From the NCBI GenBank assembly GCA_040758595.1, contig JBFLVJ010000003.1:20721-84720 (forward strand): 64,000 bases of DNA, in the 5' to 3' direction. Below the pieces are notes generated by a model, which saw only the letters and a list, made by a program, of their open reading frames with translations, was not told where the DNA came from and made no database searches. The stretch is from Candidatus Micrarchaeota archaeon. Lineage in GTDB: Archaea > Micrarchaeota > Micrarchaeia > Anstonellales > Bilamarchaeaceae. This document shows positions 13,855 through 61,031 of the stretch, piece by piece (the first letter of the stretch is position 1; each line of letters begins with the position of its first letter). The position numbers were made by a program, and so were the translations under genes.

Positions 13855-13934
13855 ACTCTTTATCCCCTTCTTCTATGTGGATGTTCGGGAGAGCGGGTTT
13901 TCCGTTCTGGGTCCTGTGTCTCGGGCGTTGCGCT

Positions 13935-13961
13935 CGAAACACGGAACCCGAAACACGGAAC
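13935..13961. repeat. Tandem direct repeat CGAAACACGGAAC x2 within a motif-rich intergenic region upstream of glmS
   Basis: Read directly: cgaaacacggaacc-cgaaacacggaaca. It is flanked by ggagaccgg x2 and GGGTTTT/GGTCTCG-type motifs that recur near the tRNAs. Confidence 0.5.
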
Positions 13962-14023
13962 ACTGAACCCGGAGACCGGGGGCTGGAGACCGGAAACCGT
14001 TTTCTCGAAACAGGTGAATCCTG

Positions 14024-21761: not shown

Positions 21762-21865
21762 ATGTAAAGAAAATATTTAAAGTTATCCATACTATGTTTG
21801 GAAAAATATCGAAAAACTATAAATATGATTCTGCCCCTCATCAAGACACACAGGAGGTCAGTACC

Positions 21866-23191
21866 ATGGCTGAGGAGATTTTCGAGCGGATGGAGAAGGA
21901 TGGAGTGAGGTTCGTTAGCCTGCAGTTCTCGGACCTGTTCGGGACCGTGAAGAGCGTCGTCATCCCGGCGAAGAATTTCGACACCGCCATGGAGCACGGC
22001 GCCTGGTTCGACGGCTCATCTGTCGAGGGCTTCGCGAGGATACACGAATCTGACATGTACCTAAAGCCCGACTTATCGACTTATGCGCTCGTTCCATGGC
22101 TGGATGCCGATCATGGCAAGACCGCCCGATTCATCTGCGATGTCTATGATCCGGACGGGGCGCCCTTCAAGGGGGATCCCAGGAACATACTCAAGAAGAC
22201 GCTGGAAGAGGCAAAGGCCATGGGCTTCGACTACAACACCGGTCCTGAGATGGAGTTCTTCCTGTTCTCCAAGGAGAACGGCACGCCCAAGCCGCTGCCC
22301 CACGATAAGGGAGGCTATTTCGATTTCACGTCCGACCAGGCCTACAATATCCGCAAGGAGATGAACGTCGCCCTGGAATCGTTCGGCATCAACGTTGAAG
22401 CATCGCATCATGAGGTAGCTGTCGGCCAGCACGAGATAGATTTCAAGTACGACAACGCCCTGAAGGCGGCGGACTCCGCGGCCACCCTCCGTGTCGTGCT
22501 CAAGGCCATCGCCCAGAGGCACGGCCTTCACGCCACGTTCATGGCAAAGCCCATCCCGGGCATAAACGGCAGCGGCATGCACGTCAACCAGAGCCTGTTC
22601 AGGGACGGGCAGAACGCTTTCTATGACGCATCTGACAAGTACGGACTCTCCAGGACCGCATACTCGTTCATAGCAGGGCAGCTCGCGCACATCACTGCAT
22701 TGTCCGCTATCCTTTCGCCCACCGTCAACTCATACAAGCGGCTCGTTCCGGGCTACGAGGCGCCTGTTTATATCTCATGGGCGAGGAGGAACCGCTCGGC
22801 CCTCGTCCGCATCCCCCGCATATCGGCCGGGAGGCCGAACAGCACCCGCATCGAGCTCCGCTGCCCGGACCCGACCACTAACATCTACCTCGCGTTCGCG
22901 GTGATGCTCAGGGCCGGCCTCGACGGCATCAGGAATGGCATGTCGCCTCCGGCGCCGGTGGAGGAGAACCTCTTCCATATCGACGAGAAGCGGATGGGCG
23001 AGCTCGGCATCAGGACGCTGCCGCACTCGCTCGGGGACGCTCTGAAGGAGATGCAGGGCAGCCAGCTCGTGAAGGACACCCTGGGCGAATATTCGTTCAC
23101 CAGGTATCTGGAAGCCAAGCGCAAGGAATGGGATTCGTTCAGGCTTTCGGTGTCCCAGTGGGAGCTGGACCGCTACCTGGAGAGATATTGA
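21866..23191 (+). CDS. glnA: Glutamine synthetase type I
   Basis: GS beta-grasp and catalytic domain motifs are present. Start chosen at the ATG at 21866, which is preceded by GGAGGT 7 nt upstream. The longer ORF from 21794 is unlikely. Confidence 0.9.
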   Translation: MAEEIFERMEKDGVRFVSLQFSDLFGTVKSVVIPAKNFDTAMEHGAWFDGSSVEGFARIHESDMYLKPDLSTYALVPWLDADHGKTARFICDVYDPDGAPFKGDPRNILKKTLEEAKAMGFDYNTGPEMEFFLFSKENGTPKPLPHDKGGYFDFTSDQAYNIRKEMNVALESFGINVEASHHEVAVGQHEIDFKYDNALKAADSAATLRVVLKAIAQRHGLHATFMAKPIPGINGSGMHVNQSLFRDGQNAFYDASDKYGLSRTAYSFIAGQLAHITALSAILSPTVNSYKRLVPGYEAPVYISWARRNRSALVRIPRISAGRPNSTRIELRCPDPTTNIYLAFAVMLRAGLDGIRNGMSPPAPVEENLFHIDEKRMGELGIRTLPHSLGDALKEMQGSQLVKDTLGEYSFTRYLEAKRKEWDSFRLSVSQWELDRYLERY

Positions 23192-23474
23192 GAAGAAGAA
23201 AGCCGGGTAAGGGAGATGTCCTCCCTGTTCCCGATTGTGGGTCGGGGATTTGAACCCCTCTACTCCGCTTTATGCCTTATCATCAGCCGAAGCCTCAGAA
23301 AAGCGGACTGCAGGCGGATGCATAACCGATCTGCCAACCCGGCTTTCAAAAAGCTGGGTGCTTTGAACGGAATGACGTTCAAACCGAACCCGGCTTTCAA
23401 AGAAAGCCGCGCCTCCTGGGCGAGTAGTCGTCCAAAGGAACTCGGCTTCCGTCCTTTTCAATACGGGATTGCTT

Positions 23475-23484
23475 TTTTAAACAA
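23475..23484 (+). promoter_or_regulatory. Archaeal TATA-like box (TTTTTTAAAC) about 26 nt upstream of tRNA-Lys
   Basis: An AT-rich TATA-like element at the expected archaeal distance from the mature tRNA 5' end. Confidence 0.4.
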
Positions 23485-23505
23485 TAGCAGGCAACTAAAC
23501 TCAAG

Positions 23506-23701
23506 GGCTCATAGCTCAGCTTGGTAGAGCGTCGGACTTTTACTGTCTCCGGTCTCGGGTTTCCGACAGAACGATGTATCGTTCTGTGGACCAGAGAAAT
23601 GCCCGGCATTTCTCCCGGTCCGGTTTCGTTAACGGAACCGGGAACGGGAAACTGGAAACACAAGAGATCCGCAGGTCGAGGGTTCGAATCCCTCTGAGCC
23701 C
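23506..23701 (+). tRNA. tRNA-Lys (anticodon UUU) interrupted by a 122-nt intron at canonical position 37/38 (intron 23544-23665). No encoded CCA
   Basis: 5' exon GGGCTCATAGCTCAGCTTGGTAGAGCGTCGGACTTTTA and 3' exon ATCCGCAGGTCGAGGGTTCGAATCCCTCTGAGCCCG. The acceptor stem GGGCTCA/TGAGCCC, D-stem GCTC/GAGC and T-arm GAGGG-TTCGAAT-CCCTC are all perfect. The intron contains several perfect hairpins. Confidence 0.8.
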
Positions 23702-23798
23702 GTTTTTGCTTCCGGTCTCCAGTTCCCGGTTTCGAGTTCTGGGTTTCGTGTTCCGGCTCCCGTCGTGACGCAGATTTTAAACGCTTTCCAGAGAAGAG

Positions 23799-24071
23799 AT
23801 GATTATGTCAGTAGTCCGAAGATTGGTCCTTGACGTGCTCGTCCCATTGAACATCCCATCCTCAGACATAGCCATGAAGCTCTCCAAGCTACACGGCGTG
23901 GACGGCGTCGACCTGCTCATAACCGCGGTCGAGCACACTGTCGAGAAGGCCAAGATAACCATGGAGGGCGATGACATCAACCTCGATAGCGTCAAGAAGC
24001 TCCTCGACAAATCCGGCGCATCCCTTCAGGGCATCGACCGCATCACATGCGGCAAGAGGTTAGTCGGCTGA
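23799..24071 (+). CDS. Small hypothetical protein (~90 aa)
   Basis: Its stop overlaps the downstream start (TGATG at 24069-24073), which indicates translational coupling with the membrane protein. Confidence 0.35.
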   Translation: MIMSVVRRLVLDVLVPLNIPSSDIAMKLSKLHGVDGVDLLITAVEHTVEKAKITMEGDDINLDSVKKLLDKSGASLQGIDRITCGKRLVG

Positions 24072-24996: not shown

Positions 24997-25242
24997 TCAG
25001 CCGCATCGGTATGCGATGCAGACGAGTCCCGTCTGACAGTCGTTGTCGATTTCACAGCTCTCTCCTGCTTTCCCTTTGAATGAATCAGATGTAAGCTCAT
25101 CCAAAGCCGCCGTCCTCTTCTCTATGCTCGCGCTCGTGTCCTTCGCGGTCCCCATCAGCTGGGTCGCCGCTATCCCCACTATCGCCAGCACCACTACGAC
25201 CATTATCAGCATCTCCGCTGAAAGCTGTCCCTTCATGTCCAT
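24997..25242 (-). CDS. Archaeal type IV pilin-like protein (class III signal peptide)
   Basis: MDMKGQLSAEMLIMVVVVLAIVGIAAT has K-G-Q followed by a hydrophobic stretch, the prepilin peptidase (PibD/FlaK)-type motif. The small mature domain has a C-terminal Cys cluster (CEIDNDCQTGLVCIAYRCG). Confidence 0.6.
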   Translation of the reverse strand: MDMKGQLSAEMLIMVVVVLAIVGIAATQLMGTAKDTSASIEKRTAALDELTSDSFKGKAGESCEIDNDCQTGLVCIAYRCG

Positions 25243-55927: not shown

Positions 55928-56224
55928 AAGGCTCGATAACGATACTTAGAGTAATATTATAAGAGTTAGGGCAAGCCACCCCTCGACTTCTTCTGGCATA
56001 CCGGGAATGCGTGATGGTTTCCTGTTTCCAGTCTCCGGTTGTTGCGCACCACTCCCTCTCTTCCCACCCAGCAGTTTCAGGCATCCGACCAAGGCTTCCG
56101 TCGCTCAGCATCCTGGAGAGGTGCGTCCTCGCCTTCCGCCGAATCTCCGGATCAGGACAGCGTTCAAGCATCCCCAGCTTCTCCCCGGCCGGGTTTTGTT
56201 TATCTCTGCCCGGTATTTATAAAG

Positions 56225-60553: not shown

Positions 60554-60681
60554 ACCCATGACACAAAACCCAGAACTCGAAACAAATGGAAAGTGGTGCT
60601 GTCGTGGCATCGCTGCGCTCGCTCCTTCCCTATCTTTCCTGAGCCCAAACCCAAGACTGGAAACTGGAGACGAATGAAAGA

Positions 60682-60905
60682 TGGGGCCGCCGAGATTTGA
60701 ACTCAGATCAAGGCCTTTTCCTGAAACCGATGGCTTTTACTGCCTCAGGGCTTTCCATGAAAGCTTTGCCCTTGGCTATGCAGAAGTCAAAGGTTTCACC
60801 CGAAGGCCCCAGTCTACCAGGGAAGCTGCGTTCCGGGTTTTCTGTTTTGGGTTCTGAAATCAAAACCCGAAACTCGAGACCCGAGACGCTTTAGCCCACG
60901 GCCCC
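60682..60905 (-). tRNA. Intron-containing tRNA on the minus strand (tentatively tRNA-Pro, anticodon CGG), probably with two introns
   Basis: On the minus strand, 5' GGGGCCG pairs perfectly with 3' CGGCCCC followed by discriminator A, 224 nt apart. The T-arm CTGAG-TTCAAAT-CTCGG is perfect. A candidate anticodon stem-loop GGGCC-TTCGGG|intron|A-GGCCT places an ~84-nt intron at 37/38. About 70 extra nt in the D-arm region imply a second intron that I could not resolve by eye. Confidence 0.5.
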
Positions 60906-61031
60906 TTGAAAATCGCAAAACTATCTCCACACAGTCTCCCCATGCTTCGATGAGAACCACTAGCACAGCAGTCCCCATTGTCTTGCGTTTCTTAGATATT
61001 GGATAACGATTCTCATTTTAAATGATGGCTC

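Follow-up and report, generated by a model that had tools for sequence, protein, structure and literature searches.

Archaeal tRNA introns are usually 12–25 nt long, within a published range of 11–129 nt (PMC4090602). Among the described systems, the closest to the locus presented here is that of Micrarchaeum (ARMAN-2), in which 56% of the tRNA genes are disrupted and whose epsilon2 EndA cleaves both strict and relaxed bulge-helix-bulge (BHB) motifs in vitro (Fujishima et al., 2011; PMC3239211). Archaeal BHB introns at the canonical position 37/38 are cut out by EndA, and RtcB joins the exons. Two further cases, as reported in PMC4090602, concern introns with additional properties. In Haloferax and Pyrococcus, a box C/D guide RNA lies within the tRNA-Trp(CCA) intron (Omer 2000; Clouet d'Orval 2001; Singh 2004), and introns of the Thermoproteales have transposed, with sequence shared across positions and tRNAs and with turnover at fixed sites (Fujishima et al., 2010, Mol Biol Evol 27:2233). 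Circular forms of excised archaeal tRNA introns are reported as well (PMC3326292). Group I introns are also inserted in the anticodon loop of tRNA genes, both in bacteria (tRNA-Leu, tRNA-fMet) and in archaea (PMC6125680).

The DNA that we analysed is a 64-kb stretch (64,000 nucleotides, hereafter the window). We regard the locus described here as probably being a functional tRNA-Lys(UUU) gene of Candidatus Micrarchaeota with one single, ordinary endonuclease-spliced intron, the body of which is most likely non-functional cargo. Positions 23505–23702 of the plus strand match the Rfam tRNA model RF00005 with 52.1 bits (gathering score, 29), and the alignment requires a single insertion, of 125 nt, in the anticodon loop. 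The 5′ exon (23505–23542, +) includes the acceptor stem, the D arm, the 5′ strand of the anticodon stem and the loop nucleotides C32 U33 U34 U35 U36 A37. The 3′ exon (23667–23702, +) begins with A38 (23667) and includes the 3′ strand of the anticodon stem, a 5-nt variable loop, the T arm, the acceptor stem and the discriminator G73 at 23702; CCA is not encoded. The intron, located at the canonical position 37/38, is 124 nt long (23543–23666). Joining both exons in silico restores a canonical 74-nt tRNA, recognized by ARAGORN as tRNA-Lys(ttt) with a normal cloverleaf, as is expected of a tRNA interrupted by a BHB intron.

Relatives of the gene were recovered by scanning metagenomes with a 20-mer of the 5′ exon. 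The matches listed corresponded mostly to intron-less tRNA-Lys genes of other lineages, and only about a dozen loci among them were informative. Four intron-less homologues (L104, L130, L192 and L122) share both the anticodon stem and the exact loop sequence, CUUUUAA. A preliminary description of this DNA had proposed a tRNA-Lys(UUU) with a long, highly structured archaeal intron, and the Rfam match, the ARAGORN result on the spliced 74-mer and the homologues all agree with it. It had placed the gene at 23506–23701 and a 122-nt intron at 23544–23665; the locus is the correct one, but both boundaries are displaced by one base on each side, and splicing at them would give a 9-nt anticodon loop. 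The mismatch that it pointed out in the anticodon stem is real: U27 (23532) faces C43 (23672). As this mismatch is common to all close homologues, including those that have no intron, U27·C43 is, on the sequences compared, a lineage trait rather than a defect.

The intron is not an assembly artefact, because the same sequence is present both in the Logan assembly L001, where it is identical, and in a second NCBI metagenome-assembled genome (MAG), GCA_049322935.1 (L213), which differs from the window by 1 mismatch in 4287 nt and has identical tRNA and intron. The genome is also represented in the dataset SRR32167786. As to the host, the glutamine synthetase encoded next to the tRNA gene has 100% identity to a protein that NCBI lists under 'Candidatus Micrarchaeota archaeon'. 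As to the identity of the tRNA, ARAGORN in intron mode reports a tRNA-Leu(AAG) with a 122-nt intron that starts at gene position 36, a reading to which we assign practically no probability. The anticodon loop that it implies is abnormal, the Rfam alignment places CUUUUA at loop positions 32–37, and the homologues, both intron-less and differently interrupted, all read CUUUUA|A, which refutes it. G73 is furthermore the usual discriminator of archaeal tRNA-Lys.

The gene is flanked by a putative promoter and a putative terminator. A TATA-box-like element, TTTTTTAAA (23473–23481, +), precedes the 5′ end of the tRNA by 23 nt, is kept at equal distance in the syntenic relative L165 and has a similar counterpart in L209; we predict it to be an archaeal promoter. 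Directly after G73, a run of five T (TTTTT, 23703–23707, +) would act as transcription terminator. Folding predicts that transcription reading through into the 3′ trailer would misfold the precursor. The trailer (23708–23756, +) consists of G/T-rich heptads (CCGGTCT CCAGTTC CCGGTTT CGAGTTC TGGGTTT CGTGTTC); the intron 5′ arm is a direct repeat of it, and the intron 3′ arm is complementary to it at 81% across 31 nt.

To define the splice sites, the register was assigned by hand, by applying the A-I pair rule (nucleotide 32 pairs with the intron nucleotide at position −3) and by comparing homologues. The 5′ half of the BHB (23537–23543, +) consists of the 5′ strand of helix H, C32 U33 U34 U35 (23537–23540), and a 5′ bulge formed by U36, A37 and the C that follows them (23541–23543). 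The 3′ half (23661–23667, +) consists of the 3′ strand of helix H, C A A G (23661–23664), and a 3′ bulge formed by A, G and A38 (23665–23667). The splice sites are thus located after 23542 and after 23666. Three of the four pairs of helix H can be formed (C32-G23664, U33-A23663 and U34-A23662), and U35 faces C23661. This mismatch at the fourth pair places the junctions outside the strict hBHBh′ definition, which calls for two 3-nt bulges and a 4-bp helix; as a 3-(3 bp + mismatch)-3 structure they fall within the relaxed definition, with bulges of 1–4 nt or with one bulge missing, which (alpha-beta)2 and epsilon2 endonucleases accept (PMC3239211). The minimum free energy (MFE) fold pairs CUUUU with AAGAG and gives a 1-5-2 relaxed BHB that has both cut sites at bulges, and the conformer constrained to 3-4-3 lies about 3.9 kcal/mol above it. 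The same register is found in the tRNA-Pro gene and in the shorter introns of relatives (type A, see below). The 37/38 intron of tRNA-Pro(CGG), in the same window, is likewise mismatched at position 35, and the 37/38 intron of relative L101 has an identical CAAGAG|A end. A custom BHB-finding script proved too permissive, as it ignored whether bulges are unpaired, and its top matches at tRNA-Lys were artefacts of the repeat arms. The best of them paired the intron 3′ arm with the trailer in a BHB whose cleavage would remove the 3′ exon. It was rejected as non-productive: offset heptads account for it, and transcription should already have stopped at the T5 run.

Splicing of this intron can be proposed by analogy. 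The precursor would be transcribed from the TATA-like box at 23473–23481 and would end at the T5 run after G73. It would present to EndA, in this order, the anticodon stem, the 3-nt 3′ bulge A-G-A38, the central helix (C32-G, U33-A, U34-A, U35 x C), the 3-nt 5′ bulge U36-A37-C and the long intron stem. EndA would cut after A37 (23542) and after 23666, thus removing the 124-nt intron; an RtcB-type ligase would then join the exons and presumably circularize the intron, which would be discarded. We infer the roles of both enzymes from the phylum assignment and from ARMAN-2 biochemistry (PMC3239211). What the locus shares with archaeal 37/38 BHB introns, of which the closest case is ARMAN-2, is the position 37/38, the 32:(−3) pair, the 3-nt bulges in canonical register, an intron that closes into a stem, and a host phylum with many disrupted tRNA genes and an enzyme that accepts relaxed motifs. 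The resemblance extends to the neighbouring tRNA-Cys(GCA), which has a T-loop intron at 58/59, that of ARMAN-2 tRNA-Cys(GCA) being at 59/60. In contrast to those introns, the tRNA-Lys intron has the U·C mismatch in the central helix, arms built of 7-nt tandem repeats and a core of two perfect palindromes.

The imperfect BHB, with three of four central pairs and an MFE fold other than 3-4-3, could also mean that the insertion is not spliced at all, in which case the gene would be a disrupted pseudogene and the cell would rely on a second copy of tRNA-Lys(UUU); that standard tRNA finders miss or mis-call the gene would fit this as well. We consider such a situation highly improbable. The insertion is exactly at 37/38 and has the 32:(−3) pair, the tRNA-Pro of the window shows the same relaxed geometry, and both the TATA-like box and the T5 run are at the expected positions. 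Moreover, the exons are 100% identical to those of a relative whose proteins differ by 15–30%. In small DPANN genomes, tRNA genes are usually single-copy. A functional tRNA-Lys gene is also what comparison with that syntenic relative, L165, points to: all 74 of the 74 exon nucleotides are the same despite a glutamine synthetase that is only 76% identical and an intron that is wholly different, a pattern that marks the gene as one under selection.

The preliminary description had called the intron long for an archaeal tRNA. This holds when it is compared to the usual 12–25 nt; as an exceptional length it does not stand, since 124 nt lies within the published 11–129 nt and long introns occur elsewhere in the window, the other two tRNA genes having introns of 38 and 34 nt and of about 68 and 82 nt, respectively. 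The intron is a long but essentially ordinary example of the archaeal protein-spliced kind. The 5′ arm (23543–23565, +) was identified in a heptad scan as a series of G/T-rich units with 7-nt periodicity, CTGTCTC CGGTCTC GGGTTTC CG. Three hairpins then follow, all of which had been recognized in the preliminary description. Hairpin 1, ACAGAACGAT-GT-ATCGTTCTGT (23566–23587, +), is a perfect 10-bp inverted repeat with a 2-nt spacer. Hairpin 2, GGACC-A-GAGAAATGCC-C-GGCATTTCTC-CC-GGTCC (23588–23621, +), combines a 5-bp stem, an A/CC internal loop and another perfect 10-bp inverted repeat (23594–23614). Hairpin 3, CCGGTTTCG-TTAA-CGGAACCGG (23620–23641, +), is a GTTAAC-centred palindrome that forms the apex of an underlying 70-nt heptad hairpin. 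The 3′ arm (23633–23662, +), a GAAAC-rich heptad array with a period of 7 according to TRF and detected as an inverted repeat, shows complementarity to the 5′ arm and a still closer one to the 3′ trailer.

The whole intron folds with −59.5 kcal/mol, compared to −38.8 ± 3.5 for shuffled sequences (z = −5.9; none of 200 shuffles as good). Hairpins 1 and 2 are the sole perfect inverted repeats in the 64 kb when arms of at least 9 nt and spacers of at most 4 nt are considered. When 23566–23619 is deleted in silico, what is left folds into a simple hairpin of 70 nt with −27.6 kcal/mol, similar to the introns of L101 (76 and 84 nt) and to the D-loop intron of tRNA-Pro, of about 70 nt. The intron reads, from its sequence, as a heptad-arm hairpin of roughly 70 nt that has gained an insert of 54 nt made up of the two perfect palindromes. 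Neither palindrome has an exact match in viral contigs, and a BLAST comparison of the intron, the trailer and the leader with the window and with the loci that had been collected by then gave no second copy of the intron core. We also considered an embedded tRNA-like cloverleaf and rejected it: the fold does have a four-way junction, but the sizes of the arms do not fit and no tRNA model matches inside the intron.

Does the excised intron, which would probably be a 124-nt circle, have a role of its own as a stable RNA (a modification guide, a protein-binding scaffold or a regulatory RNA) with the three hairpins as functional core? A very stable, branched fold (z about −6) and two palindromes unique in 64 kb speak for it, and so do, as precedents, the guide-encoding tRNA-Trp intron (PMC4090602) and the occurrence of excised introns as circles (PMC3326292). 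The tRNA-Trp(CCA) intron, 65–105 nt long in that account, is likewise long for an archaeal tRNA and located at 37/38; the tRNA-Lys intron interrupts a different tRNA and differs from it in having neither C/D nor C′/D′ boxes, K-turn, guide complementarity or conservation between relatives. The preliminary description had seen no box C, and indeed there is no UGAUGA, UGANGA or CUGA within 23543–23666. No K-turn was detected in the intron, the fold lacking any 3-nt bulge with tandem G·A pairs. H/ACA guides were searched for as well: the trinucleotide ACA is present at intron positions 24 and 116, with no K-turn or pocket, and the internal loops are of just 1–2 nt. A scan of the intron with Rfam models, which the preliminary description had suggested as a check, gave no credible family up to an E-value of 10, and the snoRNA and sRNA models were not matched. 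The best permissive match, MIR1094, with 25 bits against a threshold of 80 bits, was discarded as a reflection of the complementarity between intron and trailer; the remaining ones were weak microRNA-like and miscellaneous matches. A group I intron does not fit either, as 124 nt is too short (these usually exceed 200 nt), there is no P1–P9 architecture and the intron is not matched by Rfam RF00028.

Conservation points in the same direction. The core of the intron is missing from every relative recovered, including L165, whose exons are identical, and the Watson-Crick-perfect palindromes, devoid of G·U pairs, would suggest recent events at the DNA level rather than selection on an RNA. The idea of a box C/D guide or some other stable RNA inside the long intron is hence left unsupported by boxes, K-turn, Rfam match or conservation, and we judge a functional intron RNA to be very unlikely. 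The intron of this tRNA-Lys gene is lineage-specific and probably without a function of its own.

Comparison with the relatives recovered, whose glutamine synthetases are 62–80% identical (80% being the nearest among the matches listed), shows how variable the site is. Five of them (L165, L209, L202, L084 and L152) have alignable introns of 43–56 nt (type A) that are unrelated to the 124-nt intron, and the four intron-less homologues mentioned above have no intron at 37/38. The intron is therefore absent or unrelated in every relative recovered, the pattern that the preliminary description had named as counting against its own suggestion. In L165, the tRNA-Cys gene that adjoins tRNA-Lys is about 90% identical to that of the window, both of its introns included. 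We propose that, in this lineage, the 124-nt intron may have replaced at the same site the type A intron of the relatives. Beyond the matches listed, there may be a closer relative whose intron is homologous. A scan of genome contigs with glutamine synthetase gave mostly bacterial homologues, the best with 66% identity, and no close genome.

The arms of the intron resemble those of other introns. The 5′ arm is identical in 17 of 19 nt to its counterpart in the D-loop intron of tRNA-Pro, and the 3′ arm in 18 of 19 nt to part of the T-loop intron in L101 tRNA-Lys. The same type of arm recurs in the 3′ trailer and in the tRNA-Pro intron, and the module is present in other introns and tRNA trailers of the clade. 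The heptad scan of the window gave 8 arrays where 0.22 are expected (36-fold), 6 of the 8 being in or near tRNA genes. Two perfect 10-bp palindromes within a fast-evolving intron, and a single heptad motif present in introns, trailers and an mRNA leader, could hint at a function or at a mechanism of mobility.

These similarities raise the question of the origin of the intron. It may be a copy of a mobile, BHB-delimited heptad hairpin whose copies spread as DNA to tRNA positions, to trailers and to other Micrarchaeota transcripts, and that here displaced the ancestral type A intron. Such an origin is compatible with the splicing proposed above and differs from our preferred reading as to where the intron comes from and why it has its present form. 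Besides the arm identities, the clustering of enriched arrays at tRNA loci, the shared CAAGAG|A end of the L101 37/38 intron, the replacement of the tRNA-Lys intron while the neighbouring introns were kept, and the precedent reported in PMC4090602 for the Thermoproteales (Fujishima 2010) all argue for it. As in the Thermoproteales, sequence is shared across positions and tRNAs (here Lys 37/38, Pro D loop and L101 T loop, by way of the arms) and an intron is turned over at a fixed site; the phylum, however, is another one, and the likeness is limited to repeat-built arms, which does not demonstrate common descent. Arrays built from a common 7-nt unit resemble one another even when they do not share an origin, an effect for which the shuffle-based z-scores are not corrected. 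In addition, apexes and cores differ among the copies, there is no known target-site signature or enzyme, and the single-arm arrays of the trailers are not explained by a transposing hairpin. We hold a mobile origin to be possible, though unlikely. More tentatively, and with low probability, the heptad arrays (NNRGTYY repeated) and their GAAAC-rich complements might constitute an undescribed family of Micrarchaeota hairpin elements, present in tRNA introns (37/38, D loop and T loop), in 3′ trailers and in at least 1 mRNA leader (glmS). They might move as BHB-bounded units that replace older introns, or mark RNA for removal, and the two palindromes might be a nested recent insertion.

With regard to our preferred reading, that of a functional tRNA-Lys(UUU) gene with an ordinary spliced intron, the main use of the case lies in annotation and in the evolutionary snapshot that it provides. 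All three tRNA genes in the 64-kb window are interrupted, tRNA-Lys(UUU) and two multi-intron genes that standard finders miss. With default settings ARAGORN detects none of the three, and Rfam at its gathering threshold detects one. Relaxing the thresholds of ARAGORN is no solution, as it then reports 60 'genes', mostly spurious and within coding sequence. The T-loop intron of tRNA-Cys was resolved by one match of the BHB script, and the exact boundaries of the tRNA-Pro D-loop intron are ambiguous, many alternatives being accepted by ARAGORN. Three of three genes interrupted, with such detection rates, indicate therefore that the tRNA complements of Micrarchaeota MAGs are badly under-called unless intron-aware tools are used. 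As an evolutionary case, the locus is one of clean intron turnover at a single site: the exons are identical and the introns of the neighbouring tRNA-Cys are about 90% kept, yet in tRNA-Lys the intron has been exchanged for one that is unrelated and 2.2 times longer. This is relevant to the way in which archaeal tRNA genes acquire introns. If the heptad hairpins were a mobile or functional family, they would, speculatively, offer a tractable system in which to study the spread of BHB introns.

The tRNA-Lys locus spans positions 23505-23702 (+) and matches the Rfam tRNA model with 52.1 bits (gathering score, 29), the alignment containing one 125-nt insertion placed in the anticodon loop. On the forward strand, the sequence divides into a 5′ exon (23505-23542) that ends in ...UCGGA-CUUUUA, the last base being A37 (23542), an intron of 124 nt (23543-23666), and a 3′ exon (23667-23702) that runs from A38 (23667) to the discriminator G73 and is followed by a TTTTT run (23703-23707). 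Joining 23542 to 23667 yields a 74-nt RNA for which ARAGORN draws a normal tRNA-Lys(ttt) cloverleaf. The preliminary description had correctly recognised a tRNA-Lys(UUU) gene with a long intron, but its boundaries (23506-23701 for the gene and 23544-23665 for an intron of 122 nt) each lie one base away from those given here and, if taken literally, give an anticodon loop of 9 nt. With default settings, ARAGORN calls no tRNA anywhere in the window. In intron mode it reports a tRNA-Leu(aag) with a 122-nt intron, a mis-call of the tRNA-Lys gene to which we give virtually no credence.

As had also been pointed out, U27 (23532) stands opposite C43 (23672). All close homologues share this pair, even those lacking an intron; it is a lineage trait rather than damage. 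Assembly error can be set aside as well, since the tRNA-Lys gene and its intron are identical in a Logan assembly (L001) and in a second NCBI metagenome-assembled genome (GCA_049322935.1), which shows one mismatch over 4287 nt.

In canonical bulge-helix-bulge (BHB) introns, the third-last intron base is the partner of nt 32, the central helix of 4 bp involves positions 32-35, and the bulges comprise 36, 37 and the first intron base on one side and the last two intron bases and 38 on the other. In the tRNA-Lys precursor, C32-G23664, U33-A23663 and U34-A23662 are paired and U35 is mismatched with C23661; the bulges are U36-A37-C23543 and A23665-G23666-A38, and the inner helix runs from UGU/ACA into UCCGGU/ACUGGA. 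Although the central helix lacks one of its four pairs, the register is correct and is supported by two other introns that fit likewise: the 82-nt intron at 37/38 of the tRNA-Pro(CGG) gene of the window (U32-A, U33·G, C34-G and G35 x A, with an inner helix of 6 bp next to them), and the aligned intron conserved among relatives, whose 12-bp inner helix begins exactly at intron base 2 and base -7. The minimum-free-energy fold of tRNA-Lys pairs CUUUU with AAGAG instead and forms a 1-5-2 relaxed BHB in which A38 is a 1-nt bulge and A37-C a 2-nt bulge; forcing the six bulge bases of the precursor to remain unpaired costs 3.9 kcal/mol. That the gene is an unspliced pseudogene we regard as highly improbable. 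Relaxed motifs with bulges of 1-4 nt are described as what (alpha-beta)2 and epsilon2 enzymes cleave, and the epsilon2 splicing endonuclease of ARMAN-2, a member of the Micrarchaeota with 56% of its tRNA genes disrupted, cuts both strict and relaxed BHB motifs in vitro (PMC3239211).

The three hairpins attributed to the intron are present, at 23566-23587, 23588-23621 and 23620-23641. Its fold reaches -59.5 kcal/mol, compared to -38.8 ± 3.5 in dinucleotide shuffles (z = -5.9), and the entire precursor gives z = -6.2. Two perfect 10-bp inverted repeats within it are the sole ones of such quality (arms of at least 9 nt, spacer of at most 4 nt) in the 64-kb window searched. The outer arms have a 7-nt periodicity, the 5′ arm reading CTGTCTC CGGTCTC GGGTTTC and the 3′ arm GGAACCG GGAACGG GAAACTG GAAACAC (TRF period 7). 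When nucleotides 23566-23619 (54 nt, the two palindromes) are deleted, a plain 70-nt hairpin of -27.6 kcal/mol is left, matching in size and shape the introns of the metagenomic relative L101 (76 and 84 nt) and the D-loop intron of tRNA-Pro (about 70 nt). Because of this likeness, we interpret the 124 nt of the intron as a heptad hairpin of the standard kind that would carry a 54-nt double-palindrome insert.

Six further G/T-rich heptads, a direct repeat of the intron 5′ arm, occupy the 3′ trailer at 23712-23753, and the trailer segment 23704-23734 and the intron 3′ arm (23633-23663) show 81% complementarity over 31 nt, the arm complementing the trailer better than it does the intron's own 5′ arm. 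If the transcript is extended to 23745, the predicted fold pairs the intron 3′ arm with the trailer and the cloverleaf is lost (-105.3 vs. -93.5 kcal/mol). Since such a transcript would lose the predicted cloverleaf, the T5 run after G73, the putative terminator, probably matters in stopping read-through into the misfolding trailer. The TTTTTTAAA element at 23473-23481, 23 nt upstream of the gene and kept in the syntenic relative L165, is the candidate promoter.

It had been suggested that the intron might encode a guide RNA or another stable RNA, with the remark that no box C is seen. UGAUGA is indeed absent, and a scan of the intron detects neither CUGA nor UGANGA; its fold contains no K-turn and no pocket-sized internal loop, ACA being present twice. 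A permissive Rfam scan of the intron returned nothing but weak microRNA-like hairpin matches, which arise because intron and trailer are complementary. A BLAST search with the intron in the window and in part of the compared loci detects no further copy of its core, and an exact search of viral contigs with both palindromes gave 0 matches. That the intron is a stable functional circular RNA, as the strength of its fold might invite one to think, is in our view improbable.

A 20-mer of the tRNA-Lys 5′ exon retrieved at least 120 metagenomic loci, and more were added by protein-guided look-ups. The syntenic locus L165 (glutamine synthetase, GS, 76% identical to that of the window; Lrp, 70%; DUF211, 85%) has the same divergent tRNA-Cys/tRNA-Lys pair and tRNA-Lys exons identical at 74/74 positions; an unrelated 56-nt intron occupies its 37/38 site. 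This intron can be aligned with those at 37/38 in L209 (GS 75%; 56 nt), L202 (GS 80%, the closest relative among those compared, in which the contig end falls inside the gene and tRNA-Lys has the opposite orientation), L084 (43 nt) and L152. This "type A" family (43-56 nt; 80% mean column identity) has a long helix joining the intron 5′ end to the region near its 3′ end. Four further relatives (L104, L130, L192 and L122; tRNA-Lys 65-66/74 identical, GS of L104 and L192 about 73% identical) have no intron at 37/38. Among the matches listed, only L101 has a 37/38 intron resembling that of the window (76 nt, heptad arms and a shared ...CAAGAG|A end); its tRNA-Lys contains three introns. The tRNA-Cys gene, which lies 160 nt from tRNA-Lys, serves as an internal control: including both introns, its copies in the window and in L165 share about 90% identity (87% mean column identity when end gaps are counted). 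From the unrelated L165 intron on the one hand and the conserved exons and tRNA-Cys introns on the other, we infer that the tRNA-Lys intron was replaced in the lineage of the window with its surroundings unchanged, the nearest relative compared being at 80% GS identity. The preliminary description had named an absent or unconserved intron as the outcome that would speak against its suggestion, and this is what the relatives compared (nearest, 80% GS identity) display.

Several other features accompany these genes. The type A terminal motif CCRCYUUUU-YCY-AAAARGYGG can either fold into a hairpin by itself or base-pair with the 5′ end of the intron. L084 and L209 carry a similar motif, CCUUUU...AAAAGG, in their tRNA-Cys introns, and D-loop introns have it too. 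The tRNA-Lys genes of L084, L152, L191, L101, L209, L189 and L170 also have a D-loop intron, before CTTGGTAGAGC, the third intron of L101 being in the T loop; of these seven genes, Rfam calls only that of L209 (31 bits) at gathering threshold. In L165, L101, L104, L192 and L202, the last 9-16 nt of the tRNA-Lys 3′ end are repeated 100-170 nt downstream, and the stretch between the two copies, which holds heptad arrays, folds back onto the tRNA 3′ end. This module, which the tRNA-Lys gene of the window lacks, could represent introns located in the 3′ strand of the acceptor stem, or scars left by an integrating element.

Arrays of at least three consecutive NNRGTYY units, searched by regular expression, number 8 in the 64-kb window, compared to 0.22 expected and a shuffle maximum of 2. 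Six of the eight lie inside or within about 120 nt of its three tRNA genes, including 60566-60586 and 60647-60667 (-), in and just past the tRNA-Pro 3′ trailer; another at 56014-56034 (+) is in an intergenic stretch of 318 nt where no gene is recognised, and one at 13937-13971 is in the glmS leader. They also occur in tRNA-Lys trailers and introns of relatives (L084, L101, L165, L191). The 5′ arm of the tRNA-Lys intron is identical at 17/19 nt to that of the tRNA-Pro D-loop intron, and its 3′ arm at 18/19 nt to part of the L101 T-loop intron. These similarities would fit a mobile family of heptad-hairpin introns to which the tRNA-Lys intron belongs, but as all are arrays of one unit, such sequence likeness does not prove common descent; we hold this membership, compatible with ordinary splicing of the intron, to be rather unlikely. 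The same G/T-rich and GAAAC-rich heptads build a hairpin at 13884-14010 (+), presumably in the glmS 5′ leader, flanked by a TTTAAA element (about 13850) and by the start codon of glmS (14024). The region 13870-14023 folds as a long hairpin (-67.5 kcal/mol), and its apex GGGCGTTGCGCTC resembles that of the L101 37/38 intron, GAGCGCAAG.

Two further tRNA genes of the window are missed by standard tools. The tRNA-Cys(GCA) gene (23343..23201, -; Rfam just 20 bits, missed by default ARAGORN) contains two introns: one of 38 nt at 37/38 (23307..23270, -), and one of 34 nt (23249..23216, -) for which the T loop is the best placement, at 58/59 and with a strict BHB; the latter echoes the 59/60 intron of ARMAN-2 tRNA-Cys (PMC3239211). 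With both removed, the remaining 71 nt form a cloverleaf that has U73 and a perfect acceptor stem of 7 bp. Inside the tRNA-Cys 37/38 intron, CUGA-GGCUUCGGC-UGAUGA (23298..23280, -) forms a D′/C′-like K-loop motif around a UUCG hairpin, kept in L165 with a G·U to G-C stem change (GGCUUCGGCC). Since no C and D boxes are seen on either side, the motif may bind an L7Ae-type protein without being a complete guide RNA. The 15-nt sequence AACCCGGCTTTCAAA occurs as a perfect direct repeat (23336-23350 and 23387-23401) and consists of the tRNA-Cys 5′ end plus 7 upstream bases, duplicated 51 nt further upstream. An 8-bp hairpin separates both copies, an arrangement kept in L165 with compensatory hairpin changes and a TATA-like box at promoter distance from the upstream copy; the duplication could mean that tRNA-Cys has a third intron close to its 5′ end, or that its leader is structured. 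The tRNA-Pro(CGG) gene (60906..60683, -), called as Pro(cgg) by ARAGORN after removal of both introns, has a heptad-repeat hairpin of about 68 nt in the D loop (approximate boundaries, 60890..60823, -) and its 82-nt intron at 37/38 (-). It has an irregular D arm, a trait also reported for ARMAN-2 tRNA-Pro.

The tRNA-Lys gene lies between GS (21794-23191, +) and a DUF211 gene (23799-24071, +). An NCBI protein from "Candidatus Micrarchaeota archaeon" matches the GS at 100% identity, the next relatives being 80, 78 and 77% identical and several likewise labelled Micrarchaeota; a class III signal-peptide protein (24997-25242, -) and the DUF211 "ArCR" family are likewise consistent with an archaeal host. 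Archaeal tRNA introns range from 11 to 129 nt (PMC4090602). The length that had been singled out as long for an archaeal tRNA intron is real, yet 124 nt falls within that range and is not exceptional in this genome, in which long and multiple introns are the rule, as tRNA-Cys and tRNA-Pro carry two each; the verdict on the tRNA-Lys intron is unaffected by these two genes. The gene belongs to a phylum rich in such introns, with a permissive splicing enzyme; the splicing endonuclease EndA would cut the precursor at both bulges, and the ligase RtcB would join the exons, the intron then being thrown away. We consider it probable that the intron, located at the canonical site, is of the ordinary archaeal type spliced by an endonuclease, that it owes its length to a lineage-specific repeat hairpin and a recent palindromic insert, and that it embeds no functional RNA.
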